Below, one piece after another: positions 11,239 to 47,111 of a stretch of 64,000 nucleotides of DNA (position 1 is the first letter of the stretch; the number at the start of each line of letters is the position of its first letter). Source of the DNA: Patescibacteria group bacterium. Lineage in GTDB: Bacteria > Patescibacteriota > Patescibacteriia > UBA2591 > UBA4787. Below the pieces are notes generated by a model. That model was not told the origin of the DNA and made no database searches. It saw only the letters and a program-made list of their open reading frames with translations. The DNA lies in assembly GCA_028715115.1 (NCBI GenBank), contig JAQUSN010000001.1, forward strand, positions 283,150-347,149, given 5' to 3'. The position numbers and the translations under genes were made by a program.

Positions 11239-12752
<1,514 letters not shown>

Positions 12753-13102: not shown

Positions 13103-13105
13103 CTC

Positions 13106-30541: not shown

Positions 30542-31207
30542 ATGATTGCGAAATTATTGTCTGCGGTAAATGTCGGGCTTGAAGCGCGCTTAGTTGAAAT
30601 AGAAGTTGACGTCAGCCGCGCTTTCCCGTGTTTTAATATCGTTGGCTTACCGGATAAGGCCGTGGAAGAGGCGAAAGAGCGGGTGCGCGCGGCCATAGAA
30701 AATTCCGGCCTAAAGTTTCCTGGCCAGCGTCGCATTGTTGTTAACTTGGCTCCGGCTGACATAAAAAAAGAAGGCCCAGTTTACGATTTGGCCATCGCCT
30801 TAGGAGTTTTAATCGCTTCTGAACAATTACCGCAAGAAATCCTTAAGCAAGGGATTTTTTTCTTGGGAGAATTAGCGCTTAACGGAGAATTACGGCACAC
30901 GCGCGGCATTTTACCGATGATGATTTTTGCCCGAGAGAAAGCCATCAGTGAAATATATTTGCCCAAAGATAATTTAGCAGAAGCGCAGCTTATTCCCGGA
31001 CTCACTATTTATCCTTTAAATTCTTTAAGCGAATTAATCGGCCATTTAACCAAAGCCAAAACTATTGAGCCAATTATTAGTAGAGGAGTAAAAATAGAGG
31101 CGAGCGATGAATTTGAGGTTGACATGGCTTATATCAAGGGCCAAGAATTTATTAAACGCGCCCTAGAAATCACTGCGGCCGGTGGGCATAATATTTTGGT
31201 GGTATGA
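30542..31207 (+). pseudogene. comM: comM (Mg-chelatase-like YifB), N-terminal fragment truncated by an insertion
   Basis: Lon-like N domain that ends ...AAGGHNILVV-stop, exactly where the ComM Walker A (GPPGTGKT) should follow. The remainder of the gene resumes at 48758. Confidence 0.75.
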
Positions 31208-31392
31208 ACAACATCCCACCAATGGCCTTAGATTTGAGATAGAAGCAACGTTCTAACAATATTGACGAGGTGGTCGTGAATTATAATAAATTAAAAGTTG
31301 GTATCTCAAAATTGTTCTATCCCCCTGAAATCATTGTTTTATTCAAATTTAGTGATAATATAAATTTATAGTAAAATAACTTTATAAATCAT

Positions 31393-32250
31393 ATGAAACG
31401 AAGCTATAAAGATCGGTATAATGATGGTAATGATTTTGCAAACCTTGTTACGGGGATCATAGTTTTTTATCTTCTTTATTTAGTTCTTTTGTGGTTTACC
31501 AATAAAGCTAATTTCTGGCGGTGGTTGTTATACGGTTTTGGTGTTGTTGCTTTATCGTTTATCGGTGTTTTAGTTTGGCGTAGAATGAAAGAGAAAAGAC
31601 GTTTAGCAAAAAGAGATTGGACTGTTAACACTATCAGTCAAGCTGGACTTGAAGAATCTATTAATAATTTTATAGTCCGATTCGGTCTTGGCGAAAGAAG
31701 CAAAAACGCCTGGAGACGAAGAAACTATAACATAGATTGGTATCGTATTCATGATCTTCAGGAGGATCTGGCCAAACAAAATATCAAATTTACACTTACT
31801 GATATGAGCATTCTTTTGTCTCACTATATTAATAAAAGAGAGCATGATGTGACCACAAAAAGCATCAACGCATCTACCATCAACAGCTTTACAAAATTAA
31901 GCAGTTCTGACTTTGAACGACTTTTGGACAGACTCTACCGAGTTATGGGTTACTCTGTGCAATTAAACGGGAGAACCGGAGATCAGGGCGGAGATTTAAT
32001 TGCCACAAAAGGTCAGGAAAGGATACTTATTCAGGCTAAGTGTTATATCAATTCAACCGTAGGCAATAGTGCAGTGCAGCAAGTCGTCGCCGCAAGAAAT
32101 CATTATGATTGCAACAGAGCAGCGGTGGTCACTAGTGGTTATTTTACAAAAGAGGCGGTAGAGTTGGCTAAAACCAATAATGTAGAATTAATACCACGAG
32201 AAATACTTCAAAAAATGCTTTTAGATTATTTACACGAAAGCTGGAATTGA
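31393..32250 (+). CDS. Membrane-anchored Mrr-type restriction endonuclease domain protein
   Basis: Two N-terminal transmembrane helices. The C-terminus matches Mrr_cat (RVMGYSVQLNGRTGDQGGDLIA...ILIQAKCY...VQQV...AAVVTSGYFTKEAVELAKTNNVELI). Confidence 0.6.
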   Translation: MKRSYKDRYNDGNDFANLVTGIIVFYLLYLVLLWFTNKANFWRWLLYGFGVVALSFIGVLVWRRMKEKRRLAKRDWTVNTISQAGLEESINNFIVRFGLGERSKNAWRRRNYNIDWYRIHDLQEDLAKQNIKFTLTDMSILLSHYINKREHDVTTKSINASTINSFTKLSSSDFERLLDRLYRVMGYSVQLNGRTGDQGGDLIATKGQERILIQAKCYINSTVGNSAVQQVVAARNHYDCNRAAVVTSGYFTKEAVELAKTNNVELIPREILQKMLLDYLHESWN

Positions 32251-32318
32251 TTGTAAAGGGACTTCAGTAACAAAGAAGAGCCTTGACGGGGGCTCTTCTT
32301 ATGATATAATATAAATAT

Positions 32319-33128
32319 ATGAGAAAAACATTAATTCTATCGTTTGGATTTTTAGTGATTTTACTTTTTTTATCTGGTTGCACCATTTCCGAGAATAATC
32401 ATAATAGTCAATTAACAAACATTAGCAACGGAGAAGCTCAAGAAACAACAACGAAAACAGAAGAAACAAACAATCCCAGTGTCCAGACAAACAATTCGGT
32501 CCCAGAAATTCAGTTAACCAACAAACTATTTAAAGTAATTAAAGTTGTCGATGGAGACACAATTGATGTTGATTTAGACGGGAAGACAGAAAGACTAAGG
32601 CTTATTGGGATTGATACCCCCGAGACAGTTGATCCGAGGAAAGTCGTTCAGTGCTTTGGAAAAGAGGCATCAGATAAAGCAAAAGAGATTTTAAATGGGA
32701 AAATGGTATCTCTTGAATCCGACAAAACACAGGGAGAAAGAGATAAATATGACAGACTGTTAAGATATGTTTATTTAGAAGACGGAACTATGTTTAATAG
32801 GTATATGATTGCCGAAGGATATGCTCATGAATATACATATCAAAGCAATCCCTATAAATATCAAGCAGAATTTAAAGAGACAGAAAAGCAGGCCAGAGAA
32901 CAGAATAAGGGGCTTTGGGATATTAATACTTGTAATGGAGATACGGCTCAAGCTGCCGATAAAGATCTAAGCAAGATTAATGATGTAGACCAACCGCAAG
33001 TTAAAAAAAGCACCACTGGGATATGTCATGAGAAGGGATCGACATATTATTTAAGAACAACGCATTTTACGCCTTATAACTCTATTGAAGAATGTCTAAA
33101 TAGCGGAGGGAGATTACCCTTAAGATAA
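32319..33128 (+). CDS. Secreted lipoprotein thermonuclease (SNase-like)
   Basis: Lipobox LSGC. SNase motifs KVVDGDTIDV and RLIGIDTPE. The C-terminal 40-aa Cys/His module is shared with the next ORF. Confidence 0.65.
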   Translation: MRKTLILSFGFLVILLFLSGCTISENNHNSQLTNISNGEAQETTTKTEETNNPSVQTNNSVPEIQLTNKLFKVIKVVDGDTIDVDLDGKTERLRLIGIDTPETVDPRKVVQCFGKEASDKAKEILNGKMVSLESDKTQGERDKYDRLLRYVYLEDGTMFNRYMIAEGYAHEYTYQSNPYKYQAEFKETEKQAREQNKGLWDINTCNGDTAQAADKDLSKINDVDQPQVKKSTTGICHEKGSTYYLRTTHFTPYNSIEECLNSGGRLPLR

Positions 33129-33161
33129 TATTTATATAAATAACAGTTAACCATCAAAATT

Positions 33162-33422
33162 ATGAAAAAATGTTTATTAGTCGCCTCGCTATTAATTATT
33201 TTAGTATCCTTAATAGGATGTAGTGCTTCAAATAATAATTATAACCCTACCCCCAATCTTCCTGCCCTTCCTCAATATAATGGAGAACCACAGGTTAAGA
33301 AGAGCACAAGCAACATTTGTCACGAGAGAGGGTCAACCTATTATGATAGAACGAAAAATTTTATTCCTTATAATTCCATTCAAGAATGTTTAAATAGTGG
33401 AGGGAGACTGCCTTTAAAATAA
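33162..33422 (+). CDS. Small secreted lipoprotein carrying the same C-terminal CHExGSTYY...PYNSIxECLNSGGRLP module
   Basis: Lipobox LIGC. Its last 40 aa are about 75% identical to the C-terminus of the 32319-33128 protein. Confidence 0.45.
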   Translation: MKKCLLVASLLIILVSLIGCSASNNNYNPTPNLPALPQYNGEPQVKKSTSNICHERGSTYYDRTKNFIPYNSIQECLNSGGRLPLK

Positions 33423-33555
33423 ACAGGGTCGAATATCGTCCAGTCTCCCACCCCAGAATTTAAAAAAGAGCCTTGATAAAGGGCTCTTCTGGGCATCTTG
33501 ACTTTTAATGGGGAACATGATAGTATTATAAGATAATATATCAATTCAAAAAACT

Positions 33556-34707
33556 ATGAAAAAAATATTCATTGTCGCAATGGTTTTATTCTTTAGTCTT
33601 ATATTGCAAACTTCAAATGTCTATGCTGTACATGTAAATGGATACTATCGAGCTAATGGGACATACGTTAATTCTTATGAACGTACTGCACCAGATAGTA
33701 GCCCGTACAATAACTATGGTTATCCAGGGAACTATAACCCCAATACAGGGAAAATTACTGGGGGCAATGCAGGTACTTATTTAAATAATTATTATAAGAC
33801 TTCATCTGGAAATAGTTACGGTTATCCATCAACATCCTATACTGCTCCGTCTACACCATCTTGTCCATCGAATTCATACTATGATGGCATTGGTTCTTGT
33901 AAGTGTAGCTACGGGTACCTTGTTAGTGGCGGGAGTTGTGTGTCGGCAAATAGCGTGTGTTATGCCCAAACTGGTTATGGTTCAAGCTATGACTCTTTAA
34001 GTAAAAGCTGTAAATGCAACTCAGGGTATATCATAGGGCCTTCTGGTCAATGCATAAGTGCTAGTTTGTATTGTTCCACTCAGTTGGGGTTGATGTCTCA
34101 ATATAACAGCATATCAAAAAAATGTGAGTGCATGGCAGGCTACAAATTTAATGGTTCAAGTTGCGTATATCAATCGCCAAGTTATTCGGTAAAATCATAC
34201 GATTGTCCGCTCAATTCACACATCTCAACCGTTGATCCAACAAAATGTCAGTGCGATTCAGGATATCAGGTTAATTCAATAAAAACTGCGTGTGTGATTA
34301 TTGCAACTCAAAATTTGACCACTCCTATTTCTGGAACTGGTGACTCAGGCATTGGCACTAATTCTGCTTCCCAAGCTTGCTCTTGGGGTTATAAGAAAAA
34401 CCGTGTTAATGGTCAATGTGATAAAGTTGTGGTTCCTTCTAACGCTCATTTCGTTTATTCGGGGGATGACTGGGTTTGTGATAATGGTTATAAACAAATA
34501 GGGAACTATTGTCAATTAATTCAAGTTGGTCAAACTACACCAACATCTGATAATCAGGAGTGCAATTGGGGATATAAGAGGAGTGGTGTTGCTCCTTGTG
34601 AAGTAATAATTTTACCATCACATGCTCATTATACTTATGATGGTCACGACTGGGTTTGTGATAATGGTTATAAGCAAATTAAAGATGCGTGCTATTCTAC
34701 AAAATAA
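33556..34707 (+). CDS. Secreted cysteine-rich repeat protein
   Basis: Signal peptide. Repeated CxCxxGY...G.C modules and a duplicated HAH.Y.GDDWVCDNGYKQI unit. Confidence 0.45.
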   Translation: MKKIFIVAMVLFFSLILQTSNVYAVHVNGYYRANGTYVNSYERTAPDSSPYNNYGYPGNYNPNTGKITGGNAGTYLNNYYKTSSGNSYGYPSTSYTAPSTPSCPSNSYYDGIGSCKCSYGYLVSGGSCVSANSVCYAQTGYGSSYDSLSKSCKCNSGYIIGPSGQCISASLYCSTQLGLMSQYNSISKKCECMAGYKFNGSSCVYQSPSYSVKSYDCPLNSHISTVDPTKCQCDSGYQVNSIKTACVIIATQNLTTPISGTGDSGIGTNSASQACSWGYKKNRVNGQCDKVVVPSNAHFVYSGDDWVCDNGYKQIGNYCQLIQVGQTTPTSDNQECNWGYKRSGVAPCEVIILPSHAHYTYDGHDWVCDNGYKQIKDACYSTK

Positions 34708-34982
34708 AATTATATTTAATAACATAGAGATTATTATTGCTACTATTTGAGAAAAAGAGCCCTGATAAGGGGCTCTTTTTAGGTACGAAGGGTTAATAAT
34801 GGTTAATATTGATCTGACTCAATTTGGACAAAGAGGGCAAAACACTATTTTAAAAGAGAATATGGTGTTTTATTTTAGCTTGGACCACTCAACCAATGCC
34901 GAGAGTCACTCCAAAACCTGGTTGTGCTAACGCCACGACATACTTAGAGAATTCAGTTCGCTTTTTCACCCCTCAAGATCCA

Positions 34983-35618
34983 TTATGTAATCAGGTTAGA
35001 AGTTGTTTTGTTTAAAAGCAAAGAGCTTGATCTTTTAAATAGGACAATAATTATGATTAAAGGTATAACAAATAAAAATACAATAATGCCTATAGTAAAG
35101 ACGCTTTGTCCAAAATGGCTGAGGCCATTAACCCAGTTGGGAGAGAATAGGTTGGGAATAAAATTATATGCTCCGTGAAATAATATTGAAAACAAAAAGC
35201 CCAAGAAGGGCTTATTAAGCAGGATAAAGTATATTAGAATTATAGAGGCTGCAGGATGCACTAAACTTAAGAATCTTAATGGGGTAAATTGAGCACCACC
35301 AGCTAAACAATACATTAAGTGCTCTAAAATAGTAAAAACTATAGAAACTATTAAAATCTGTCCAACCCATTTAACTTTATTTGATTTGCCTGAAAAAAAT
35401 TTGAACCCAAAATATTTTAATAACTCTTCTGTTATAGGAGAATAAAGGAAGAGATAAATAAAAAGACTGAGAGGGGCGCCCCCGGCTATAAAATCAATAA
35501 AGGGTTTATAGATGATTCTAACAGTAAAATATAAGAATCCTGTTAGTAAGAAAGCTAAAATACCTCCCAAAACACCAAGAAATACATCTCGTTTATTTAG
35601 AATACGTAATAGATTCAT
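34983..35618 (-). CDS. CPBP-family intramembrane metalloprotease (CAAX protease/Abi family)
   Basis: EELLKY (motif 1), FxxxEHxxY and HGAYN (motif 3). Multi-transmembrane. Confidence 0.55.
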   Translation of the reverse strand: MNLLRILNKRDVFLGVLGGILAFLLTGFLYFTVRIIYKPFIDFIAGGAPLSLFIYLFLYSPITEELLKYFGFKFFSGKSNKVKWVGQILIVSIVFTILEHLMYCLAGGAQFTPLRFLSLVHPAASIILIYFILLNKPFLGFLFSILFHGAYNFIPNLFSPNWVNGLSHFGQSVFTIGIIVFLFVIPLIIIIVLFKRSSSLLLNKTTSNLIT

Positions 35619-36304
35619 ATAGTAAAGAATAGATCATTGTTTGCAATTCAACAAGCTTTTTGTTAATTTTTATCACTATTATTTAGAGGCAAAGACTCCC
35701 AAAAAACGGGAGTCTTTTTGTCGGAGTAGCAAGCTACTGAAAGAGAAACAAAATTTCGTCGTTTGTTCTACTCTTTGTTCGCTCCCGCAAACGCGGCTCT
35801 TGGTGTGCCCGTAAGCCACCGTTGCTTTTAACCGCACCTTTCACCCATCTCTGGGCAAATCCACCGCACAAAGGCGGATGGCGGACTTATTACAACACTG
35901 TTATCAGCGAAAAGCCGATAAACACCAACTCTCGCTACTCCAATTAGATTATAGCGCTCTTTTGTTTAATGTCATAAAATAAGGCTTGTGCGACCACCAT
36001 TCTCTATTCTACAACTAGCGTTTTGTGGATTTTTATAAATTCTTTCATAAATATTTATATAAAAAGTGGTTCATGGATAAAACTGGTCAAAACGACTACG
36101 AGAAACACTGAATAATGCTTGCTTCACAATGTTTTTCTGAACTTTTATGCAAAAAATGGTTATTAGAAAAACTATGTCAAAATAACCACGTCACTACACA
36201 GGGGCGGATTTACTTTATTTATTACCTACCCCGCCATGCTGCACGCCCTATATTTTTTAAAAAAATAGGGTCGTTCCTCATTGAGTAACGAAAAAAAGTG
36301 AGAA

Positions 36305-36643
36305 TCAATCCTTGACTAAAACCTCCCTGGGGACAGAGCCGTTGGCTGGACCGACGATACCCTCTGCCTCCAAGAGATCCAAAAGATGGGCTGCCCTAGC
36401 ATATCCAACGCGTAGTCGACGCTGGATAAGTGATGCCGAAGCCCTACCAGCTTTAATCACAGCCTCGCGTGCATCTGGCAACAATTCATCGTCAGTTAAA
36501 TCACTAAAATCTCCAGTTTTATCAAAAGAAAATATTTTTTTATTTAATAGCTCAATCCCCTTTCTTAATTTAGCAATCTCTAAAATAAGCCAAACGAAAA
36601 GCCCGAGGGATATTAAAGATACAAGAACAAGCAAGGTAATCAT
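36305..36643 (-). CDS. Small membrane protein: N-terminal transmembrane helix fused to an FtsK gamma (winged-helix) domain
   Basis: ELLPDAREAVIKAGRASASLIQRRLRVGYARAAHLLDLLEAEGIVGPANGSVPREVLV matches the FtsK gamma consensus. It is a shorter paralog of the 37577-38050 protein. Confidence 0.6.
   Translation of the reverse strand: MITLLVLVSLISLGLFVWLILEIAKLRKGIELLNKKIFSFDKTGDFSDLTDDELLPDAREAVIKAGRASASLIQRRLRVGYARAAHLLDLLEAEGIVGPANGSVPREVLVKD
36370..36480. repeat. Direct repeat of about 110 nt (about 88% identity) with 37650-37760, the gamma-domain coding segments
   Basis: ...ccaacgcgtagtcgRcgctggataagYga.gccgaagccctaccagctttaatcacagcctcgcgtgc is present in both. Confidence 0.6.
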
Positions 36644-36681
36644 AAAATATATTATTTAATTTTATTAAAAATATCTCAAAA

Positions 36682-37572
36682 TTATTGGGTCTGATGAGCA
36701 ATCTTATATATATCTTCATCGCTAACAAGGGCCACCCGAAACTTAATAGGTCCTTTTTCGCCAATATAAGGGTTGGTCAACAGGGCTTCGTATCCTAACT
36801 CCAGTTTTTCTGCTCCTCCATAATCAAAGATAAACTCTGTGTCTTCTTTACTAATAGTAGCAAAGCAAATTTTAGTTGTAAAATTTACCCGAAGAAGAAT
36901 AGGTAAAACCTCTTCTTTAAAATACCAGGCATTGATAATTAACCGAATATTAACGCACCTGCCCAGCTGAAGTATTCTAATTAAGTTTTTCTCTATTGCT
37001 TTTGCCGTTTTCGCATCCTCTAACATAAATTTTGCCATCTCATCTATAATTAAGAATAAGTGGGGCATTTCAAAAGATTTTTCATTATTATATTTATCAG
37101 CAGTACGCATTCTCGCTTCTCGCAAAATATCATATCTTCTATCTAATTCTTTTACTGTTTCATCGGTGGCCTTAAGTAATTCTTCGGCATTTCTCAAAAA
37201 CGGCCCCTTTAAGTATGAAGACTCTGAGAAAAAAGCATAATCAATATAAGACGAATCGGCAATCACAAACTGAAGTTCTTTGGGGGTGAATTTCTTTATC
37301 AAACTAACCATAATAGCGTTAGTATATTCGTTGGTGGGAGAATTAACGTTTCCGCCTATTATTAAATGTGGAAGGTCTTTGAGGTCTAAAAATAGATATT
37401 TCTTATTGGTTACCATCCACAATAGATTAGAAAGCGAGAATCTCTTGCCGACCCTTACTCCCAGCGGAACCACTAAGTTTTTCTTGTCTGCTCCAAATTC
37501 CTTATGTTTCCATAAGTCCTTTGCTAAGGCTGGCTTCCCCTTAAACCTTAATTCTTTGCGAGGATAAATCAT
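36682..37572 (-). CDS. FtsK/SpoIIIE motor-domain homolog with a degenerate P-loop (probable pseudo-ATPase)
   Basis: Aligns with the FtsK beta domain. Where FtsK has PHLLIAGTTGSGKS, this protein has PHLIIGGNVNSPTN, so the Walker A Lys/Ser is lost. Walker B is kept (LFLIIDEMAKFM), as is ELDRRYDIL. There is no transmembrane region and no gamma domain. Confidence 0.6.
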   Translation of the reverse strand: MIYPRKELRFKGKPALAKDLWKHKEFGADKKNLVVPLGVRVGKRFSLSNLLWMVTNKKYLFLDLKDLPHLIIGGNVNSPTNEYTNAIMVSLIKKFTPKELQFVIADSSYIDYAFFSESSYLKGPFLRNAEELLKATDETVKELDRRYDILREARMRTADKYNNEKSFEMPHLFLIIDEMAKFMLEDAKTAKAIEKNLIRILQLGRCVNIRLIINAWYFKEEVLPILLRVNFTTKICFATISKEDTEFIFDYGGAEKLELGYEALLTNPYIGEKGPIKFRVALVSDEDIYKIAHQTQ

Positions 37573-37576
37573 GGGG

Positions 37577-38050
37577 TTATAAAATTTTAATTACTTCTTT
37601 AGTTATAATCTCTCTTGGTTCGGCGCCATCGCCTGGGCCAATCGTACCCTCTGCCTCTAAAAAATCCAAAAGCGCGGCTGCTCTGGCATAACCAACGCGT
37701 AGTCGGCGCTGGATAAGCGAAGCCGAAGCCCTACCAGCTTTAATCACAGCCTCGCGTGCTTTTGGTAATAATTCTTTATCAGTCAAATCAACAAATCCTT
37801 CACCATCAGCTATTCTTCTTAATTGCCCAACTTCATTTCTTATTTGAAAAATTGAGGCCGAGACGTTGTTGCTGCTTATAAGATATTCTCTGACATCTTC
37901 ATAAATTTTATTAAGAATATCGGGGTTTTCTTGGGGAAATAATTTTTTATTTAACGAATCAAGTCCTTTTCTTAATTTAACAACCTCTAAGATAAACCAA
38001 ATGAAAAGACCGATGGACACTATGGATAATAAGACTAAAAATGTGATCAT
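37577..38050 (-). CDS. Membrane protein: N-terminal transmembrane helix, linker, then an FtsK gamma domain
   Basis: ELLPKAREAVIKAGRASASLIQRRLRVGYARAAALLDFLEAEGTIGPGDGAEPREII. The gamma-domain DNA is about 88% identical to 36370-36480. Confidence 0.6.
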   Translation of the reverse strand: MITFLVLLSIVSIGLFIWFILEVVKLRKGLDSLNKKLFPQENPDILNKIYEDVREYLISSNNVSASIFQIRNEVGQLRRIADGEGFVDLTDKELLPKAREAVIKAGRASASLIQRRLRVGYARAAALLDFLEAEGTIGPGDGAEPREIITKEVIKIL

Positions 38051-38103
38051 AAAAATTTATTCAATTTCTACTATTAGTTTATTTCCTACCATATTTTTAT
38101 ATT

Positions 38104-38619
38104 TTATTTTGAGATTTCACATTTTCCAAATGATACTAAAGTCATTGTACCTAGTGTTGCGACGTCAACAAATTCTCCCTTATTACCTAGAATGTCTCCA
38201 GTGGCAACCTTAAACAACATCGCTTGACCTTGCGATGGAACAAATTGTGTAAATTCTCCTGACAGATTTACCTTGACTGGATAAGGGTCACATCCTTTGG
38301 CATCACATCTAAAATATGTTCCGCTTTCGGTACCATAATCTACAAAATAATATGTTGCTGGAGCGTCGGGTTTACATCCATCCATATCACAGTTATATCT
38401 AATAGTTGGAAAACATGAGAGTTCAGCTATGTCTGCCATTGCAGAATGTTGCGCAGATTCATCAAAAGATGTTTTTAATTCTTGACTCGGTGAAATTATA
38501 TCGGAACTGGGGGAATTTGTTATTTCCTTTCCCGTCTTAACAAGCTCTTTATTGAAAAACAAAAAATAAAAAGAGACACCCAATGCAATAACGAGCATAA
38601 AAATAATAAAATTTTTCAT
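38104..38619 (-). CDS. Secreted/membrane-anchored hypothetical protein
   Basis: N-terminal transmembrane/signal segment and Cys pairs. First gene of a minus-strand operon of exported proteins. Confidence 0.35.
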   Translation of the reverse strand: MKNFIIFMLVIALGVSFYFLFFNKELVKTGKEITNSPSSDIISPSQELKTSFDESAQHSAMADIAELSCFPTIRYNCDMDGCKPDAPATYYFVDYGTESGTYFRCDAKGCDPYPVKVNLSGEFTQFVPSQGQAMLFKVATGDILGNKGEFVDVATLGTMTLVSFGKCEISK

Positions 38620-38623
38620 AAAA

Positions 38624-38917
38624 TTATCTTTCGTAAATTACCCTTCTTGCACGAAAACAATAATCAATGCATTCTTCTTTATTGGGAAAATATTTAATTC
38701 CCATCATAACGCCAGCATCAGTATATCCTAAAAAATAACCCCAGGATTTGTCTGTTGGTTCATATTCACAATAAAGATCAGTGCATAAGCGTTTACGAAA
38801 ATTATTAGCTTGAATTTTAGGCTCTATTTTTAATTCAAAAAAGACATAACTTCCAATTATTAGAGCAATAACAAAAATAATCCAACCAACAAAATTTTTA
38901 TTATTTTTGTTTTCCAT
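38624..38917 (-). CDS. Small membrane-anchored hypothetical protein
   Basis: N-terminal transmembrane helix; Cys-containing. Confidence 0.3.
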   Translation of the reverse strand: MENKNNKNFVGWIIFVIALIIGSYVFFELKIEPKIQANNFRKRLCTDLYCEYEPTDKSWGYFLGYTDAGVMMGIKYFPNKEECIDYCFRARRVIYER

Positions 38918-38926
38918 AAATTATCT

Positions 38927-39358
38927 CTATCTAATGACTATGTCAAAGTTATATTCTTCTGCCCATCCAAAATCAGAAAAATTTAATAAGGTTGAATGTA
39001 ACCCCTCTTCTACTATTTCTTTTATATCGTTAAGCCTTGATTGTGATAAATTGCTTTTTGGATAAACGTAGATTACAATGCTTTTTGCAATGACTGACCC
39101 ATAAGCATCAAAATCATCAAAAAAGAGTGAATCTTTTATTTTTCTTCTATAAAAATAGTCATCTATAAACCCCTCGAGTTGTAGCTCGTCTTTTCTGGTA
39201 ATTTCGTTTTCTTGTGGAATTTCTGATTGTTTTTGTTGTTCTTTTTCTGCTCTAGTTTGTTCCCTTTGTGGCAAAAAAATAACAAAATAATAAAAAATAG
39301 AGAGACTAATTAGCAAAATGCCAATCACCAACATAATTTTCCAGTAATTTTTTTTCAT
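38927..39358 (-). CDS. Membrane-anchored hypothetical protein
   Basis: N-terminal transmembrane helix followed by a charged linker. Confidence 0.3.
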   Translation of the reverse strand: MKKNYWKIMLVIGILLISLSIFYYFVIFLPQREQTRAEKEQQKQSEIPQENEITRKDELQLEGFIDDYFYRRKIKDSLFFDDFDAYGSVIAKSIVIYVYPKSNLSQSRLNDIKEIVEEGLHSTLLNFSDFGWAEEYNFDIVIR

Positions 39359-39363
39359 ATATT

Positions 39364-39585
39364 TTATTCTTTTAAACCAAACCTATGAAGGCAAGTTTTA
39401 TAATAAGCATCTATAAACCGTAGCGCTTCCATGTCATCAATTTTAAGAATTGCCGTTTGGTTAAATTCTGCTTCAGCTAAACATACTGACCTTATCTGTC
39501 TTGGTTTATATTCATACCAATAAAAAGCAAAACCTAAAATTAAAATTAAAGTTACAAAAATGAGAAAGTATTTTTTCATAAACAA
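39364..39585 (-). CDS. Small membrane-anchored hypothetical protein
   Basis: N-terminal transmembrane helix. Confidence 0.3.
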   Translation of the reverse strand: MFMKKYFLIFVTLILILGFAFYWYEYKPRQIRSVCLAEAEFNQTAILKIDDMEALRFIDAYYKTCLHRFGLKE

Positions 39586-39674
39586 TTATTTAAGAGGTAA
39601 TCTTCCACCACTATTTAAACCATCCTCAATAGGTTTTTGAGCAATGTTTTTAAACAAGTCCGTTAAACAAGCAT

Positions 39675-41744
39675 CTATTTAACTATTTTAGCATACTGAC
39701 TCATCACCCACCCTGCTTTATTGGCGACATAATATATCTTATACCAACCATTTTGCTGATCAATCACTGAATAGATTTTTTTATTTAAAATTGATGTGAT
39801 AATTTTACCGCTTAAACTCGGAAGACTTCTAACCCTCAAACCGGGAACAGTTGCTTTTATATTAAATGTCTGACTGTCTGGGGTTGTGTTTATTTGTTCT
39901 GATATTGTTAGATCTGGACCCGTAGGATAAGCACTTAATGTAGCCACATCAACGTCTACAACGTCTTTCCACTTATATCCTCTACCTAAGAACACCGTAG
40001 CGCTTTTAATGGGGCGTTTTTGATTGTTATAAATTAAATAAACACCGGCAGTGCCCTTTACTCTGGCCAGAGTTCCGTTAATTAAATCGCCGACATTTGA
40101 AGATGTTTTACTGCTATCTGCTATAAATAAACTTAAAGAGCCGAGCGTAGTTAAGTCAATATTGTCTAAAATTGAGGACACTCTCGAATAATTATTAGAA
40201 CCTCCGTTATCGTAAGCCATTGGAGAATTGTTAAGCCAACTATTAATTTTATTGATTGATAAAATTCCTCCCATATTGGTAAAATTTCCCAGAAAAACCT
40301 TTGAGGGTATGCCGACGAAAGTACCATTTTTAAGATAAGCGCCGCCCCCCGAATTACCAGAATCAAGAATGGCTTGTGTTTTTAAATAATTACCATCAAC
40401 ACCGCTGAAAGCACCGCTTGTATAGTTTATCTTTGTTCCGAACTTTGCGGGATAACCATAGGTTGTCAAGGTATCGCCTAAACGAAGACTATCACTGTTA
40501 CCCTGTATAATGCTTACAAATGTTAAACTCTTGTTGCCTTGATTTCTTAATTTTAAAAGTGCAACATCGATATCGCTTGAAACTTTATAAATATCAGCGA
40601 TCTGTCTGTCGCCACAATATGGCTCATTGTTGTAGTTATCTACAAAACAAACCAAGCAACCCAGCGTTCCGTCAATTACATGCTTATTGGTTAGTATCGT
40701 CCCCTTTGAATCAATTATCGTTCCCGAACCCTGGCTCGCCATTGTTTTATCAACGGGACAAATGAGTTTAACCGTGGATTTTATTATTAAATTTTGATTA
40801 ACTATTCCTAAGTTTTCTGTTGGTGACTGTAGTGCAGGCTGATTTGGCGCTACACAATATTGCGAGGTTGCAGGAGATGCCGTTTCAGCGGAAGAACAAT
40901 CAAATACTTTATTGCAACTTCTTGTTTGAATTCCTTGGGGTGAACAAGCGCCCCAATTACCGCAAGACCAAGTATCAGCATTGCATGTGGATTCTTGCCG
41001 TGGTGGCGTACAGCTTTGTGAGGTTGATGGTGAGGACGTATAGGCTGTCGGACAATCAAAAGTTTTACTGCAGGTTCTGGACTGCGAACCATAAGAGGCA
41101 CAGGTGCTCCAGTCGCCACAAGACCACGTGTCGGATGTGCACGGCGGAACATAATTACAAGATTGAGTGGTTTCGACTGCTGGGCCAGTGTTAACTGTCG
41201 GACAATCAAATGTTTGTGTGCAGGTTCTATTTTTTGTACCATTTTGTTCGCAGGGTCCAAAATCACTGCAAGTCCAAAGATCATAATAACATACTGGCAA
41301 AAGCCTAATGGATACATCTTTGTTTAAATAAACCCATCTATTTTCCTCGCCGTAATAATAAATAAGTTTAATGTTCTTGATTTCATAGCTCCCTGACGTC
41401 ATAAAAGAATTCGCCCCAAGTGCCCGATAGAGCAACTCATTGGGAACTTTTATCTGTGAATTAGACCACTCCTCAATATTGCCAGTGCCCTGGCCATCAA
41501 GTTCTAGGGCATGACTGCCGCAAGGGGGAAGAAGATTATTTCCATTGATTATTAAGTCTGGTGCCCCCGCCTTGTACCTATCTGGCACGCTATATCCAAG
41601 TCTTATTTCAGTAGGAGTTACGTCTGTGATTTGAGGTGGTAAGTTTTCGTTATAAGCACAATCTGCATAAACAAAACCATGTGGAATTGCAAATAAACTT
41701 AAAATGAATAGGGAAGTTAAAATGATTGTAAATTGTTTTTTCAT
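39675..41744 (-). CDS. Secreted trypsin-like (S1) serine protease with N-terminal Cys-rich repeats and a C-terminal SH3b-like domain
   Basis: Signal peptide. Four repeats of WSCG.W..C...G...R.C...FDCP. Catalytic triad contexts TNKHVIDG (His), DVALLKL (Asp) and DSGNSGGGAY (Ser). C-terminal GWYKIYY...GWV. Confidence 0.6.
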   Translation of the reverse strand: MKKQFTIILTSLFILSLFAIPHGFVYADCAYNENLPPQITDVTPTEIRLGYSVPDRYKAGAPDLIINGNNLLPPCGSHALELDGQGTGNIEEWSNSQIKVPNELLYRALGANSFMTSGSYEIKNIKLIYYYGEENRWVYLNKDVSIRLLPVCYYDLWTCSDFGPCEQNGTKNRTCTQTFDCPTVNTGPAVETTQSCNYVPPCTSDTWSCGDWSTCASYGSQSRTCSKTFDCPTAYTSSPSTSQSCTPPRQESTCNADTWSCGNWGACSPQGIQTRSCNKVFDCSSAETASPATSQYCVAPNQPALQSPTENLGIVNQNLIIKSTVKLICPVDKTMASQGSGTIIDSKGTILTNKHVIDGTLGCLVCFVDNYNNEPYCGDRQIADIYKVSSDIDVALLKLRNQGNKSLTFVSIIQGNSDSLRLGDTLTTYGYPAKFGTKINYTSGAFSGVDGNYLKTQAILDSGNSGGGAYLKNGTFVGIPSKVFLGNFTNMGGILSINKINSWLNNSPMAYDNGGSNNYSRVSSILDNIDLTTLGSLSLFIADSSKTSSNVGDLINGTLARVKGTAGVYLIYNNQKRPIKSATVFLGRGYKWKDVVDVDVATLSAYPTGPDLTISEQINTTPDSQTFNIKATVPGLRVRSLPSLSGKIITSILNKKIYSVIDQQNGWYKIYYVANKAGWVMSQYAKIVK

Positions 41745-42062
41745 AGATTTTGTTGCTTAATTTTTTTGTTAAATTTGCTGGCGAAAATACAAAACCCGCC
41801 GCCAAGCGAGACTTGCGCCTCCTATACCCTTTCGGATATAGACCACGTGTATGGAGCCTGAACGACGGGTTCAGTCAGTATACACGTGGCTTTATTGCCA
41901 TGCCCACAGAGATTCCATGGGTTTAGGCAACTTAATTGTTGATTTTATAATAACATAAAGAAATAAAAAGGGTAGCCCAGTGAATAAATTGTGTAAATTT
42001 TCGGCTTCGTTTAGCTTGACAAATGTAAAAAATGCTATAAAATATAATAAACAAGGTCCAAA

Positions 42063-43031
42063 TTGGACCCTAAAATTAAAATAACAATGAATATGGATGT
42101 CCACGATAGAAAATTTATAGAAAGTCACAATAGCTTATGCACTGATCCAACACGCAAAATTAATGAGAAAATTTTGCGTTGTTTTAAAAAAAATTTATCG
42201 ATTAAAAAACCGACGATTAAAAAGCATCGTGATAAATTAGTTAACTGGATAACCTCTACTACATACCAAAAAGACTTAAACCTAAAAATATTGAGGAATA
42301 ACTTTGAATATTTTAACTACAAAACAAACATCATCTTTTCAGACAAAAAAATAAATAAACCGGGAGTATTTTATTTAGGAAGAAGCTCAACTCAAAGAAT
42401 CTATTGGCAAGCAATTTATAGCAAGCATTATTTTACAAAAAGAATGTTATTAGATGATTTTTTAAAACTTGATTTAGAATATAACAAAAACGATCAAAAA
42501 GAAGGAAGGAATTTAAATAAAATTAAAAATTTTATAGAACAATATAGTGTTTGCTTTATTAACTACCAAAACTTATTTAACTATCAAGATGGACTAGAGA
42601 CTTATTTCGATGTTTTAATTAAAAATTATTTATTTTTTAAAAATTTTTACAAATTATTATTAGAAGATAAAAAATTTCCTTACAAAATAAAAGAGCCAGC
42701 CTTAAAAAGTAAGCATTATTGGCATTGGTATAATAAATATGCAAGATTATTATTCGCCCTTAATGAAGAAAAAATTTTTATCAAGAATGATTGTTTCCTT
42801 CCCCTTAAATGTATAATTAAAGAACCCAAAACCAACATTCCCTTGATAACCGATGAATTCCCATATCTTATAAACCTACTTTATGGTTTCATAATACAAG
42901 AACGAGCTGGACTGGAGAGATGTGGGTATTGTAAGGTATTGTTTGTGAAACGAAGAAAAGACCAAAAAGGATGTTGCCCAAATCATTCAAAATCATTAAG
43001 AGATGAGAAATATAGAGAGAAAATGGCTTAA
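42063..43031 (+). CDS. Hypothetical Lys/Asn-rich protein with a C-terminal Cys cluster (CGYCK...CCPNH)
   Basis: Very AT-rich gene. The likely start is the ATG at 42087/42093. The promoter is TTGACA-16-TAAAAT at 42016-42043. The palindrome GGTCCAAATTGGACC overlaps the start region. Confidence 0.35.
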   Translation: MDPKIKITMNMDVHDRKFIESHNSLCTDPTRKINEKILRCFKKNLSIKKPTIKKHRDKLVNWITSTTYQKDLNLKILRNNFEYFNYKTNIIFSDKKINKPGVFYLGRSSTQRIYWQAIYSKHYFTKRMLLDDFLKLDLEYNKNDQKEGRNLNKIKNFIEQYSVCFINYQNLFNYQDGLETYFDVLIKNYLFFKNFYKLLLEDKKFPYKIKEPALKSKHYWHWYNKYARLLFALNEEKIFIKNDCFLPLKCIIKEPKTNIPLITDEFPYLINLLYGFIIQERAGLERCGYCKVLFVKRRKDQKGCCPNHSKSLRDEKYREKMA

Positions 43032-43155
43032 ATAAAGCAAAAGATTCGATATTAAAACGTCGCTTTGAGCGGCGTTTTTATGTTAATTATTAATTACTTT
43101 ATAATTATAATAATGTTGTATTTTGAAAAATTAAAAGTTATAAAAATTAGAATTT

Positions 43156-43422
43156 ATGAAGCGAGAAATATCAAAACAAAATGATTTTTTTGAAAGTTCA
43201 GATTTAACAATTTGCACCACTCTCTGTTATTTTGGTTATCAAATAGAAACCATTAGCAGACAAATATCGTCTAAGGTTATCTTTTCGATTAAAAAAGATG
43301 AAAAATTAGACGAATTGATTCAAAAATATTGGGCCCATCAACTCTTAGTAGAGCCGATGGCCTTTTTTAATTGTTTAAAAGAAATTAAATCGAGAATTTA
43401 TAGTAGTTTACCGAATAATTAA
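43156..43422 (+). CDS. Hypothetical small protein
   Basis: 88-aa ORF with no recognisable motif. Confidence 0.25.
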   Translation: MKREISKQNDFFESSDLTICTTLCYFGYQIETISRQISSKVIFSIKKDEKLDELIQKYWAHQLLVEPMAFFNCLKEIKSRIYSSLPNN

Positions 43423-43602
43423 TTTTTCACCCCGATGAATCTAAAACAGTCAAACAACAAAAAGAACGACATCGAAATTGAGATAATTTATAATTCTCCG
43501 AAAGAGGGAGCGGATTGTTTATTATCTAAGGCCATAGAGATGATCTTGCCAGAAGAGACTATAAAACAATATTTAAATAATAAAGAATAACATATAAAAA
43601 TT

Positions 43603-44235
43603 ATGAATATGAAATATGCGGAAACCTTGAACAATTTATATCTTTCTAATTTAGAGAAAGAATGGCAGAAATCGTCAATAAGGTATTCAGAAAGACAATG
43701 GGTGGGGGTGTTTCCAGAAGCAAAAGAAATTATTAGAGAAATCATCAAAGGCTTTGAAAAAGAAGAGCAGGAGATTTTAAGCACGATCCAAGAAAACTTA
43801 ACTTTAATTAGAAGTCAAATATCTGGTATATCTCTGTATTTTTGGAGAGAGTGGGTTAAATGTAGCCAGGTTTCGCGGTTAATAGAGATTGAAAAAAAAA
43901 TAGCTGGGCTAAGGGCGGCCATTTCGGAGGGCAAAGCTTTTAAGGGCGAGAAGAACCATAGAATCAATGACGAAGATATTTATCAGGCCCTGCAAACATC
44001 AATAATTGACGTAGCTATTCCTTCTTTAAATCAAGCCAGACAACTCGGAGAAAACTATCTTTCTCTTTGCCCGTTTCACAAGGAAAATCACCCCTCCTTT
44101 TATTTATATGCTTTAACTAATTCTTTTTATTGTTTCGGCTGCGGAGTCGGTGGAAATGTTATTAATTTGGTAATGAAATTGCACAATCTCCCATTTAAGG
44201 AGGCGGTGCGGTTTCTATTAAGAGGACAATTATGA
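43603..44235 (+). CDS. Protein with a C-terminal CHC2 (DnaG-type) primase zinc finger
   Basis: LCPFHKENHPSFYLY...FYCFGCGVGGNVINLVM matches zf-CHC2. No TOPRIM domain is present. Confidence 0.5.
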   Translation: MNMKYAETLNNLYLSNLEKEWQKSSIRYSERQWVGVFPEAKEIIREIIKGFEKEEQEILSTIQENLTLIRSQISGISLYFWREWVKCSQVSRLIEIEKKIAGLRAAISEGKAFKGEKNHRINDEDIYQALQTSIIDVAIPSLNQARQLGENYLSLCPFHKENHPSFYLYALTNSFYCFGCGVGGNVINLVMKLHNLPFKEAVRFLLRGQL

Positions 44236-45599
44236 ATATTAAAATGCCAAGCGAACAAGCGCTTGAACAAAAAATTCAGGAAGTTGAGAAAACGGTTCAG
44301 GAGGTTGAGAGGGATGTCGTTGAGAGGGTTTTGCCAATAGAATTTAAAGGTCAATCGGTAGGAATTGACGAATGGCGAAAAACTATACAAGCCAACTTTC
44401 CTGAGTTGTTTTTCCCCGCAGAAGTGGGTCTAAGCGTTATTGCTCAATTATTAATCAAAGACATAAGCAATCCCTTCGGGATGGTTTATGTCGATGTACC
44501 AAGCTCGGGGAAAACCATAACTTTAAACTTTTTTACTGAGGTTGAAGAATTGGTTTATGCAACAGATAATTTTACTCCCGCTTCTTTTGTCTCCCATGCT
44601 AGCAATGTTAAAAGGGAAGACTTAAAGAAAATTGATCTTCTGCCCAAAATACGTTATAAACTTCTAATTGTTCGTGATTTGGCTCCAATTTTTGGTGCAG
44701 GAGAAGAAGACTTACAAAAGAATTTAAGTACCCTAACCAGAGTATTTGACGGCGAGGGGTTGCAAACTGACAGCGGTATCCACGGTCAGAGAGGATATTG
44801 CGGAGATTATGTGTTTATGTTTTTAGCCGCCTCTACTCCAATTTCTCCTAAAGTGTGGAAGGCAATGAGCAGCTTCGGTTCTCGGCTTTTCTTTTTAAAT
44901 ATGGAAACGAAAGAAAAGGACGACGATACTCTGGCCCAGCAGCTAACTCACAACTCTTGTAAAGAAAAAGAAACAGTCTGCCGAGAAAAAACGGGACATT
45001 TTATTAGAACTCTTTGGCATAAATATTCTGACGGGGTTGATTGGAATAAGGGCAATGACTCTCAAGAATTAAAAAAGATGATTGGCAAAATAGCAAAATT
45101 ATTAGCTAAATTAAGAGGGACGATTAAAGTTTGGGAGAAAAGCAATTTAAGAGATGATGAAAATTTTGACCATCAAATTCCAATAATTGAAAAACCAGAC
45201 CGGATTAACCAGTGTCTTTATAACTTGGCTCGCGGACACGCCTTGGTTTGCGGTAGAGAACAAATTGACGAAAGAGATGTTGCGGTAGCCCTGGAAGTGG
45301 CACTTGATTCTGCCATATCATCAAGGGTCCAGTTGTTTAATGCCCTGTTGGACAATAACGGACAACTAACGACCGATGAAGCTATGGATAGAATTAACTG
45401 CTCTAGGGTTACGGCCCTTAAAGAAATGGAGGCGTTTAAAATACTGGGGTTGGTTGATTTGAAGAATGAAGTTATGGGTATTGGCCGCCCGGAATATGTC
45501 ATAACACTAAAAGAGAAATTTAAGTGGTTTTTAAGTGGAGAATGTAAGAACATAAGAGAGCCAAAGGTCGCAGACACAGGGGTAGATTTACTAAATTAA
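44232..45599 (+). CDS. P-loop NTPase, possible primase-associated or replicative helicase-like protein
   Basis: Walker A-like VDVPSSGKT and Walker B-like KLLIVRD. Translationally coupled to the zf-CHC2 protein (4-nt overlap). Confidence 0.35.
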   Translation: MNIKMPSEQALEQKIQEVEKTVQEVERDVVERVLPIEFKGQSVGIDEWRKTIQANFPELFFPAEVGLSVIAQLLIKDISNPFGMVYVDVPSSGKTITLNFFTEVEELVYATDNFTPASFVSHASNVKREDLKKIDLLPKIRYKLLIVRDLAPIFGAGEEDLQKNLSTLTRVFDGEGLQTDSGIHGQRGYCGDYVFMFLAASTPISPKVWKAMSSFGSRLFFLNMETKEKDDDTLAQQLTHNSCKEKETVCREKTGHFIRTLWHKYSDGVDWNKGNDSQELKKMIGKIAKLLAKLRGTIKVWEKSNLRDDENFDHQIPIIEKPDRINQCLYNLARGHALVCGREQIDERDVAVALEVALDSAISSRVQLFNALLDNNGQLTTDEAMDRINCSRVTALKEMEAFKILGLVDLKNEVMGIGRPEYVITLKEKFKWFLSGECKNIREPKVADTGVDLLN

Positions 45600-45625
45600 T
45601 TAATAAATAAAGTAAATTTACCCCT

Positions 45626-45937
45626 ATGTATACAGAACAACAAATCATTGAAAATCTTAAAAAGTGTCCTTATTTCAATAGATGCTCTCAGAATCTATGT
45701 CCCTTGGACCTGGAACTTCACCTGAGAACAGGCAATAAACAGGATAAATGTCGCTGGATGAGAGAACCCAAGCAAGCAAGGGTCGAAGGTAAAGAGTTCA
45801 TCTCTGGAGGAGGGGTTATGCCGAATGTCCTTTTGAATTTCGTGCCTGAAGCGAATTTAGAGTGGCTCAACCAATCGTCTCAAGAAGCTTGTCGACGGCT
45901 TATTGACCCTGATTCTCACCTGGTATCAGGTAAATAA
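45626..45937 (+). CDS. Hypothetical small Cys-containing protein
   Basis: 103 aa, with CPYFNRCSQNLCP. Confidence 0.25.
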   Translation: MYTEQQIIENLKKCPYFNRCSQNLCPLDLELHLRTGNKQDKCRWMREPKQARVEGKEFISGGGVMPNVLLNFVPEANLEWLNQSSQEACRRLIDPDSHLVSGK

Positions 45938-45957
45938 CAGGTAATAATAATTAAAAT

Positions 45958-46626
45958 ATGACGAATCAACAAGATAACGAATTAAGTAAAATCGAAGAAG
46001 GCACCAAGCCTGTAGTTAAAAAAGAGCTTACGCCAACAGAAATTGATAATTTGAAAAAGTTTTTTTCAGACCCACATACCAGTGAGGAACAACGACTGAA
46101 GGAATACGATGGATTACGAAAAACGAGGCAAAGATCAAAGGAACAAGAAGATAGGAAAGAAAAATTGAGCATGGAGCTTGCAATAATTCACGGATTTGAT
46201 AACGGAATTCTACTTCAGAGTATTGTCGGTGATAAAAGGTGTGGACCAGGACTTATAAAAATGAGACGGGGTTTAATAGAAGAACATCGATGCAAGGCCG
46301 CCTCGGAGTTTATGTTGGTAGATAAAATCGTTACAGCCTACTGGAAAAGTATGCGATACGAGACATTCCTTAATAGGATTATTGAACCAGAGCTAGACAA
46401 ATTTATATTCAAAGAATCCCAAATAAAAATAATTAAAGAAATCCAGAAAGGTATAGAACTAGCTAATCGACAATTTGAAACAAGTCTAACCCTACTTAAA
46501 AGTCTGAAGCAGCCCAAACTAAACGTGAAGGTAAGCGCCGATAATGCCTACATCGCCCAGAACCAGCAAGTTATTAATACAGACGAGATTAATCCTTCTC
46601 CCAAAGAAATCATTAAGGCCAATTGA
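45958..46626 (+). CDS. Hypothetical charged protein
   Basis: 222-aa Lys/Glu-rich sequence. Confidence 0.25.
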   Translation: MTNQQDNELSKIEEGTKPVVKKELTPTEIDNLKKFFSDPHTSEEQRLKEYDGLRKTRQRSKEQEDRKEKLSMELAIIHGFDNGILLQSIVGDKRCGPGLIKMRRGLIEEHRCKAASEFMLVDKIVTAYWKSMRYETFLNRIIEPELDKFIFKESQIKIIKEIQKGIELANRQFETSLTLLKSLKQPKLNVKVSADNAYIAQNQQVINTDEINPSPKEIIKAN

Positions 46627-46641
46627 TTTGGGAACATTTTT

Positions 46642-46932: not shown

Positions 46933-47111
46933 ACTTGACTGGATATACCAGGGTGTTATAATAATAACGTTGACCCATGTCCCAAAACATCCCTAAGATT
47001 TTTATTGCCCTGTTGCCCTCAAGGGGGCGGCTATGCCAATGAGGCAATCCTTAGGGAAAGCGGATTTGGGTCAACCATGGCCGCCCCTTTAATTTGTTTA
47101 TAAAAAATTAT

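Follow-up and report, generated by a model that had tools for sequence, protein, structure and literature searches.

Inside an integrated element, a Patescibacteria group bacterium (GenBank assembly GCA_028715115.1) carries three genes built from parts of FtsK: a motor protein that has lost its P-loop, flanked on either side by a gene for a small membrane-anchored protein with an FtsK gamma domain. We analysed a window of 64,000 nucleotides of its chromosome (contig JAQUSN010000001.1, positions 283,150 to 347,149), within which all positions are numbered. We read the motor as a maintained pseudo-ATPase, because its one close relative has also lost the P-loop and the ratio of nonsynonymous to synonymous substitution rates (dN/dS) between the two is 0.11. 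Our tentative preference, a little short of an even balance of belief, is that the triad is a non-catalytic, membrane-tethered DNA-docking derivative of a pump of the type formed by TraB on actinomycete integrative and conjugative elements (AICEs), here borne by an integrative element. The three genes are co-directional, in the order 157-amino-acid (aa) protein, 296-aa motor, 112-aa protein:

37577–38050, minus strand: 157-aa transmembrane (TM)–linker–gamma protein, identified by open reading frame (ORF), Pfam FtsK_gamma and AlphaFold2 model; TM helix at residues 2–20, a juxtamembrane helix, a two-helix insertion at residues ~43–81 and the gamma winged helix at residues 91–150
36682–37572, minus strand: 296-aa FtsK beta-domain pseudo-ATPase, without TM segment, full alpha domain or gamma domain
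36305–36643, minus strand: 112-aa TM-gamma protein, with a single N-terminal TM helix and an FtsK gamma winged helix

A first-pass annotation, made by reading the window's sequence, had proposed this triad, and ORF and Pfam analyses agree with it. The two small proteins match FtsK_gamma (PF09397) at 5e-24 and 2e-25 (84 and 88 bits). The 296-aa protein is an FtsK homologue, as had been claimed: it matches FtsK_SpoIIIE (PF01580) in Pfam at 1.4e-13 (51 bits) and the P. aeruginosa and E. coli FtsK motors in the PDB at E = 1e-22 by sequence. Its AlphaFold2 model, built from 32 sequences (pLDDT 87, pTM 0.87), has FtsK motors as its closest solved structures in Foldseek (2IUS/6T8x; TM-score 0.84–0.85). 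Of the VirD4/TcpA coupling proteins, TcpA is a weaker structural match than FtsK (0.75), and EccC/EssC score about 0.7 (0.70–0.73). A Pfam search found neither the 4TM domain (PF13491) nor the alpha domain (PF17854) in the motor chain, and the model takes in only the tail of the alpha domain (TMt 0.64).

The D2 and D3 domains of EssC/EccC (type VII secretion) resemble the motor in another respect, being FtsK-family domains with lost or reduced catalysis and regulatory or substrate-docking roles. Unlike the window motor, they sit in one multi-ATPase chain of three FtsK-like domains with an active D1, and they serve protein secretion, not DNA handling. NCBIfam EssC/EccC matches of the single-domain 296-aa protein fall far below the cut-offs, and no type VII secretion genes lie nearby.

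Each small protein opens with a hydrophobic 19-residue segment (mean Kyte–Doolittle 2.7) followed by KLRK; the sequences predict single-pass anchors with the gamma domain on the cytoplasmic side. AlphaFold2 models the insertion of the 157-aa protein as two extra helices, 43–59 and 63–81, and nothing else. A second partial gamma domain at this place was considered and rejected, BLASTP also being blank. Exact-sequence look-ups of the 112-aa and 157-aa proteins returned zero records.

The catalytic site of the motor has been dismantled. We compared it with its sole close relative, P0002 (277 aa; 62% identity by BLASTP, 66% over aligned codons), and with its next relative, P0045 (34% identity). 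Residue roles are those of P. aeruginosa FtsK (bioRxiv 10.1101/2022.01.03.474797), whose numbering comes first in each line, with the alignment anchored on the PDB sequence:

Walker A, G472/K473/S474: window P79/T80/N81, lost; P0002 V65/S66/N67, lost; P0045 kept
Walker B, D595/E596: window D177/E178, kept; P0002 A161/E162, Asp lost; P0045 kept
trans Arg finger, R620: window R205, kept; P0002 G189, lost; P0045 N187, lost
gamma-phosphate sensor, T630-Q631: window A215-W216, lost; P0002 V199-Y200, lost; P0045 S197-L198, Gln lost
loop II DNA grip, R632: window Y217, lost; P0002 K201; P0045 K199
loop I DNA grip, K657: window K242, kept; P0002 K226, kept; P0045 A224, lost

The motor had been called P-loop-dead, and its Walker A indeed reads GNVNSPTN, with the Lys and the Ser gone (G472 to P79, K473 to T80, S474 to N81). 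The further claim that the arginine-finger region had diverged was right about the surroundings but not about the finger: R205 itself is retained, whereas the neighbouring T-Q-R sensor and DNA-grip motif is gone (A215-W216-Y217). From these replacements we infer that the window motor would be unable to hydrolyse ATP. P0002 has lost the Walker B Asp and the Arg finger besides the P-loop, and P0045 keeps Walker A and Walker B without the Arg finger and the sensor Gln; catalytic residues have therefore been lost stepwise in this clade.

Several observations indicate that the P-loop-less form, as far as sequences can tell, is rare, old and maintained. An exhaustive search of 1.84 billion cluster representatives with HMMER yielded 16,524 matches; among the best 150 of these, Walker A is missing only in the window motor, P0002 and one GSGQS variant. 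No close relative of the dead motor was found in GTDB representative genomes or IMG/VR. The window motor and P0002 are both intact ORFs, and the dN/dS of 0.11 was obtained over 277 codons with dS at about 1.9, which is saturated. The MIYPR... start of the motor is conserved in the stand-alone P0002. The six loci that encode P0002 show only one difference among them in a comparison of synonymous variation, too little to measure selection.

Membrane-anchored gamma domains and short motors recur together beyond the window. The first-pass annotation could match the arrangement to no described system, which proved too strong: the same parts make up the single-chain TM–gamma–motor proteins P0050 (376 aa) and P0068 (496 aa) and, with two TM-gamma genes beside a motor, the locus L009, and the layout of the element parallels AICE/TraB. 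L009 comprises genes for an S24 repressor and a PDDEXK nuclease, a pair of TM-gamma paralogues (dN/dS 0.11), an FtsK-like gene of 366 aa with GATGTGKS, and genes for a DUF3987 protein and a serine recombinase. P0050, P0068, P0056 and L009 agree with the triad in their set of domains and in its order, from anchor through gamma to short motor, and their contexts are also mobile (S24 repressor, PDDEXK, DUF3987, serine recombinase). The anchor of P0068, MNTFILITFIALFLWLL..KLKK..D.L.NK, is similar to that of the window 157-aa protein, and its motor start, LKDLWKEKEF, to that of the window motor.

What sets the window apart is one TM-gamma gene on each side of a motor without a P-loop. The motors of P0050, P0068, P0056 and L009 all keep GxxGxGK[ST], as GSGKT in P0050 and P0068. 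Membrane-anchored gammas and short motors thus occur together repeatedly, a pairing that gene fusions seal. The exact triad is seen in the window only and is not a conserved unit. All 79 gamma matches in representative genomes are ordinary FtsK C-termini, with no further stand-alone cases among them. In actinophages and Bacillus phages, existing annotations already include short genes resembling FtsK and small ORFs with gamma alone.

We noted further variants among the retrieved loci. P0068 (L012, 366–1856) continues past its TM, gamma and FtsK-like motor domains into a response-regulator receiver domain, which suggests that some family members could be controlled by phosphorylation. At L011 (6901–9131), a 363-aa alpha-plus-beta FtsK-like gene without TM or gamma is followed after 8 nt by P0050; the pair, which may form a heteromeric motor, adjoins genes for a methyltransferase, a ResIII helicase and a PDDEXK nuclease. 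Gamma proteins that stand alone include a second class, represented by P0004 (L007/L008, 6001–6552) and P0009 (L010, 3699–4013), which has a coiled-coil N-terminus, no TM segment, one or two gamma domains and the Arg equivalent to E. coli R1300. Its islands hold type I restriction-modification, UvrD, DUF2779, PDDEXK and ParB-methyltransferase genes. Gamma domains also occur in two non-FtsK proteins of IMG/VR viral contigs, at residues 727–780 of a 1546-aa protein (L017, 3844–8484) and at the C-terminus of a 200-aa protein (L018, 5593–6195).

The two gamma genes of the window are duplicates of each other. A direct repeat of about 110 nt had been reported at 88% identity, and we measured 89% over 110 nt:

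36363–36472: direct repeat core, copy 1, encoding gamma helices
37650–37759: direct repeat core, copy 2, 110 nt

The paralogy extends over the full length of the genes and includes the TM segment (199 nt at 79% plus 118 nt at 76%). The 157-aa copy has an insertion of ~40 residues (37 extra aligned residues plus a short gap). Both genes are intact, with a dN/dS of 0.31. The repeat is GC-richer than its surroundings, as had been observed (0.54–0.56 against 0.36 in the element). The excess lies mainly at codon positions 1 and 2, not position 3, and the gamma sequence is rich in Ala, Arg and Gly; it is thus compositional, and we rejected foreign DNA as its source.

Motor and gamma domains differ in their distance from cellular FtsKs. 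As a comparison set we used 114 canonical FtsKs of Patescibacteria (candidate phyla radiation, CPR), which are ~730 aa long with a 4TM–alpha–beta–gamma layout:

gamma identity: window against cellular CPR FtsKs, median 65% (maximum 76–79%); cellular against cellular, 70–77%
motor (beta) identity: window against cellular CPR FtsKs, median 29% (maximum 34%); cellular against cellular, 62–66%

By this measure the window gammas seem to be cellular-type domains captured fairly recently, and the motor belongs to an old, fast-diverging lineage of mobile elements.

Although the gamma fold is preserved, the residue that E. coli FtsK needs to read its polarity motif is not. The recognition helix of E. 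coli FtsK reads the FtsK orienting polar sequences (KOPS) through R1300, E1303 and E1306, and our alignment to solved gamma structures is ungapped at the R1300 position. The equivalent residue is Arg in 114 of 114 cellular CPR FtsKs. In the window it is Ala in the 157-aa protein (GYARAA[A]LLD) and His in the 112-aa protein (GYARAA[H]LLD). It is Met in both L009 paralogues, Gln in P0050 and Lys in P0056, and Arg in most other retrieved stand-alone or fused gammas, with the exceptions of P0038 (His) and P0039 (Gln). The E. coli R1300A variant is impaired in KOPS recognition and fully supports XerCD-dif recombination (PMC2680272). Because the R1300 equivalent is replaced and R1300A is KOPS-defective, these element-borne gammas probably no longer read the host polarity motif in the normal way. 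Their description as classic KOPS-binding winged helices therefore stands for the fold and fails for the KOPS-reading Arg, which is replaced in both copies.

The triad is thus close to cellular FtsK/SpoIIIE in parts and remote from it in organization. It shares the beta fold (TM-score 0.84), the gamma winged helix and Walker B. Unlike the cellular protein, it lacks the 4TM and the complete alpha domain, carries gamma on separate single-pass proteins instead of the motor chain, has lost Walker A, the sensor and the loop II Arg, has the R1300 equivalent replaced, and is encoded by a mobile element.

This pattern raises the possibility that the target is the host machinery. Tethered, KOPS-blind gammas might mimic FtsK-gamma and still touch XerD or DNA, so that Xer recombination or the loading of FtsK would be activated, mislocalised or titrated, and the dead motor would co-assemble with host FtsK and modulate it. 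The gammas are nearly cellular in sequence yet have the R1300 equivalent replaced, and the separable functions of E. coli R1300A fit such a role. There is a precedent: the TLC-phi satellite phage encodes XafT, an Xer activator that replaces FtsK-gamma (PMC6744903). The motor, too, retains the R205 finger and Walker B and could in principle complete the active site of a neighbouring subunit. An Xer-type tyrosine recombinase is indeed encoded nearby, as had been noted, at 53471–54409; it lies 5 kb outside the element.

Other observations speak against host manipulation. XafT resembles the window proteins as a mobile element's own stand-in for FtsK-gamma function, but it is not a gamma homologue and TLC-phi integrates at dif, whereas the window gammas are true, membrane-tethered gamma domains on an element that integrates by serine recombinase. 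Integrative mobile elements exploiting Xer (IMEX) and other Xer-exploiting elements likewise integrate at dif; the window element sits in comM. No dif-like site with at most two arm mismatches and good palindromy was found in the window, the CPR dif consensus itself not being identified. P0002 has G189 in place of the R205 finger, a motor only 29% identical to cellular motors is a doubtful partner for co-assembly, and P0002 elements carry no gamma genes in the recovered sequence. On balance we consider host FtsK/XerCD manipulation unlikely, if worth keeping in mind.

Could the three genes simply be pieces of one disrupted ftsK, or of a single TM–gamma–motor gene recently broken by a frameshift? 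Single-chain relatives exist (P0050, P0068), and only 4 nt separate the 157-aa gene from the motor (TAA-CCCC-ATG). The first-pass annotation had itself named this as the outcome that would overturn it. We rejected it. The triad lies within an insertion in comM; cellular CPR FtsK differs in architecture, and cellular motors are 62–66% identical to one another and 29% to the window motor. Both small genes have a start and a TM segment of their own. Read 5' from the motor ATG, the motor frame closes after 21 nt, and the junction has no slippery site. The stand-alone orthologue P0002, at a dN/dS of 0.11, uses the same MIYPR... start, and the sequence downstream of the 112-aa gene holds no relic of a motor. 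The reading frames are real, as had been supposed: a contig assembled independently in Logan matches window positions 36443–37751 at 100% identity and covers both gene junctions, its ends falling within the two gamma repeats. We regard fragmentation as scarcely credible.

The triad had been placed on a mobile element, and it does lie inside one: a ~17.5-kb insertion that splits comM, with a large serine recombinase at its right junction:

31208–48706: integrated element, ~17.5 kb, interrupting comM; borders approximate, set by the two comM halves
30542–31207, plus strand: comM/yifB 5' half, with ChlI and the first 27 Mg_chelatase profile positions, ending ...GGHNILVV and a stop
48707–49458, plus strand: comM 3' part, restarting at Walker A (VLMSGPPGSGKT), profile position 25
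31393–33128, plus strand: protein with an Mrr-type restriction endonuclease domain and a staphylococcal nuclease (SNase)-like protein, left end of the element
33556–34707, plus strand: 383-aa predicted secreted protein with repeated cysteine-rich modules and weak EGF/TIL-like matches
38104–39585, minus strand: four small genes of 171, 97, 143 and 73 aa, each with a single N-terminal TM segment, co-directional with the triad
39675–41744, minus strand: 689-aa predicted secreted protein with repeated C-x-C modules, then a trypsin-like protease and a C-terminal SH3
43156–46932, plus strand: putative replication/core module, with a DUF5659-like 88-aa protein and a CHC2 zinc-ribbon primase-like 210-aa protein, followed by ORFs of 455, 103, 222 and 96 aa, several of them common to L001 and L013
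47094–48758, plus strand: large serine recombinase, 554 aa, with Resolvase, Recombinase and Zn ribbon domains, CcrB/XisF-like, right edge

The ComM/YifB Mg-chelatase-like gene is split at profile positions 25–27, its Walker A. comM is a known insertion hotspot for mobile elements in Acinetobacter and Pasteurellaceae (PMC11472951). Patescibacteria join the lineages in which this transformation-associated helicase gene is a mobile-element target, here by way of a serine recombinase. The insertion is not recent, because the 3' remnant has undergone a further internal deletion or frameshift near 49039.

An old insertion invites the reading that the triad is a functionless remnant, in which an immobile element is losing an inactivated transfer gene and the gammas are incidental duplicates. 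Besides the decay of comM, the loss of the catalytic motifs fits this reading, as does the rarity of the clade, with two clusters among the 1.84 billion representatives and none in GTDB representatives or IMG/VR. It does not account for a dN/dS of 0.11 over 277 codons between two intact P-loop-less orthologues that are 62–66% identical, for intact gamma paralogues at a dN/dS of 0.31, or for the tight, operon-like gene spacing. We think a remnant very unlikely.

Relatives of the motor travel with relatives of its neighbours. The longest of the six P0002 loci, L001, shares with the window element the motor (62%), the DUF5659 gene (42%) and the 103-aa gene (58%); P0002 lies ~2 kb from a large serine recombinase, amid small ORFs that include these homologues. 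The P0045 locus, L013, has in common with the element the SNase (70%), the motor (34%), the primase (30%), the 96-aa gene (40%) and the 222-aa gene, and L009 the serine recombinase (34%) and two TM-gamma genes. Integrative elements of Patescibacteria form a modular family, and the 296-aa motor belongs to its core genes.

The closest described analogue is the TraB/AICE system. AICEs are defined by an integrase, a replication protein and an FtsK-domain Tra protein, and AICEs and Streptomyces plasmids often carry operons of small, diverse, translationally coupled membrane genes, the spd genes (PMC3429521, PMC4447253). The AICE set consists of an integrase (Ser or Tyr), a replication module, often of primase type, and one FtsK-domain protein. 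The window element has a serine recombinase at its edge and an FtsK-domain protein; its putative replication module holds the CHC2 primase-like protein and an unassigned 455-aa protein, and no Rep or Prim-Pol family matches were found among the element ORFs. TraB is membrane-anchored with a winged-helix DNA-recognition domain and adjoins small membrane-protein (spd) genes. The four small TM genes, with 4–9 nt between them and 53 nt upstream of the triad, are operon-like and reminiscent of spd; searches of family libraries gave no match for any of them. No phage structural or packaging families were found among the element ORFs with PHROGs.

The differences from TraB are substantial. TraB unites in a single chain an active ATPase and, at the C-terminus, a winged helix-turn-helix that binds clt repeats. 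In the window, anchor and winged helix-turn-helix reside on two separate, duplicated proteins, the winged helix is a true FtsK gamma, the motor is without a P-loop, clt-like repeats were not found, and the Patescibacteria host is not a mycelial actinomycete.

The left end of the element brings in a defensive alternative. A dead FtsK-like subunit with DNA-binding anchors might act in defence or entry exclusion, so that related elements or phages would find their DNA entry or translocation blocked or poisoned. It might also form part of a nuclease-based defence island. In PADLOC the motor matches FtsK-like regions of SspH (5.6e-24) and of MADS mad8, and the Mrr-type nuclease and the SNase match candidate defence models, the latter being C3a212 at 3e-48. 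Related gamma and motor loci (L007, L011, L013) also lie beside restriction-modification, UvrD, PDDEXK and CBASS-like genes. The motor matches, however, reflect generic FtsK-domain similarity with no system-level match, and the small proteins have no PADLOC match. Moreover, the motor behaves as a core gene that accompanies those for integrase and replication, and not as variable cargo. We judge a defensive role decidedly unlikely. The functions suggested in the first-pass annotation, namely DNA capture or partition, interference with FtsK/Xer and defence or anti-defence, are all conceivable.

A derivative of a TraB/AICE-type pump, the reading we favour, would work as follows. The ancestral module would have been a membrane-anchored, gamma-guided double-stranded DNA (dsDNA) pump that moved or segregated element DNA. 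We propose that the window motor, no longer powered by ATP hydrolysis of its own, has become a non-catalytic ring or adaptor, because it would be unable to hydrolyse ATP. Together with the two cytoplasm-facing TM-gamma anchors it would dock dsDNA at the membrane. Any translocation would rely on an ATPase supplied in trans, by host FtsK or a helper element; otherwise the complex would serve as a tether or gate.

A number of points weigh against this account. When FtsK hexamers assemble, nucleotide normally occupies the interfaces between subunits, which makes a nucleotide-free ring an assumption; a physical link among the three proteins is another. No gamma gene is present around P0002 at any of its six loci (in the longest, L001, across at most 8 kb upstream and about 4.6 kb downstream); the conserved role of the motor therefore cannot require TM-gamma. 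Pfam, NCBIfam and PHROGs showed no conjugation, relaxase or VirB4-type type IV secretion families among the element ORFs. No clt- or KOPS-like 8-mers are enriched or clustered in the element beyond multiple-testing expectation, and the recognition sequence was not identified; nor was a dif-like DNA target found in the window. The further decay of the comM remnant means that this copy of the element may be immobile. Finally, TraB-type dsDNA conjugation has so far been described in Actinomycetales only (PMC3429521).

A bolder version of the proposal seems to us possible, though rather unlikely. Here Patescibacteria would harbour AICE-like elements, in one lineage of which the FtsK-derived transfer module has become nucleotide-independent, a pseudo-translocase ring with two KOPS-blind gamma anchors that docks or gates dsDNA or hijacks host FtsK/Xer, and so constitutes an undescribed functional class. 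Literature searches on a P-loop-less FtsK core gene, on its pairing with TM-gamma proteins and on such Patescibacteria elements returned nothing specific. As far as we found, then, three things are undescribed: integrative elements with a conserved FtsK beta-domain protein that lacks the P-loop among their core genes; the pairing of such a motor with duplicated single-pass TM-gamma proteins that lack the KOPS-reading Arg; and this type of element in Patescibacteria.

If the module works as we propose, FtsK-type (TraB-like) DNA-handling modules on integrative elements would extend beyond actinomycetes, into ultra-small, episymbiotic hosts whose routes of gene exchange are poorly known. The motor would be a clear natural case of an FtsK-family motor turned conserved pseudo-ATPase. 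The stand-alone, membrane-anchored gammas with the KOPS-reading Arg replaced would be a separation-of-function variant provided by nature, with which to study the roles of gamma beyond KOPS reading.

The element has several further features. Its cysteine-rich secreted proteins may be surface or host-interaction cargo, and it also holds a gene for a PrsW-like membrane protein. Between the 112-aa gene and the PrsW-like gene is a gap of 690 bp, which contains a stretch on the minus strand (35690–35945, GC ~55%) that we regard as a candidate novel structured RNA of the element. It lies downstream of a promoter-like ATGACA-16-TATAAT (35975–35948), near consensus, and is predicted to fold into a closed multi-stem structure with a hairpin at its end (minimum free energy -104 kcal/mol; z = -6.0 against 200 shuffles). 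For this stretch Rfam gave no match at E <= 1, the fetched loci contain no DNA like it, and it holds no relic of a protein. A decayed second motor in this gap, as a tandem-duplication origin would imply, was also considered and rejected, since a profile search did not confirm a weak tblastn match (E = 0.018): its best score, -1.5 bits, lies within those of shuffles.

A second RNA is of a known family. LOOT RNA (Rfam RF03000) is found at 41808–41929 on the minus strand, at 81 bits against a threshold of 46.4 bits, 64 nt upstream of the start of the 689-aa trypsin/SH3 gene and followed by a terminator-like hairpin (41810–41795). Elsewhere, the window has a 16S rRNA gene in the region 11234–13182 and no 23S gene anywhere; tRNA-Ile and tRNA-Val genes adjoin the 16S gene on the opposite strand, and the rRNA genes appear to be unlinked.

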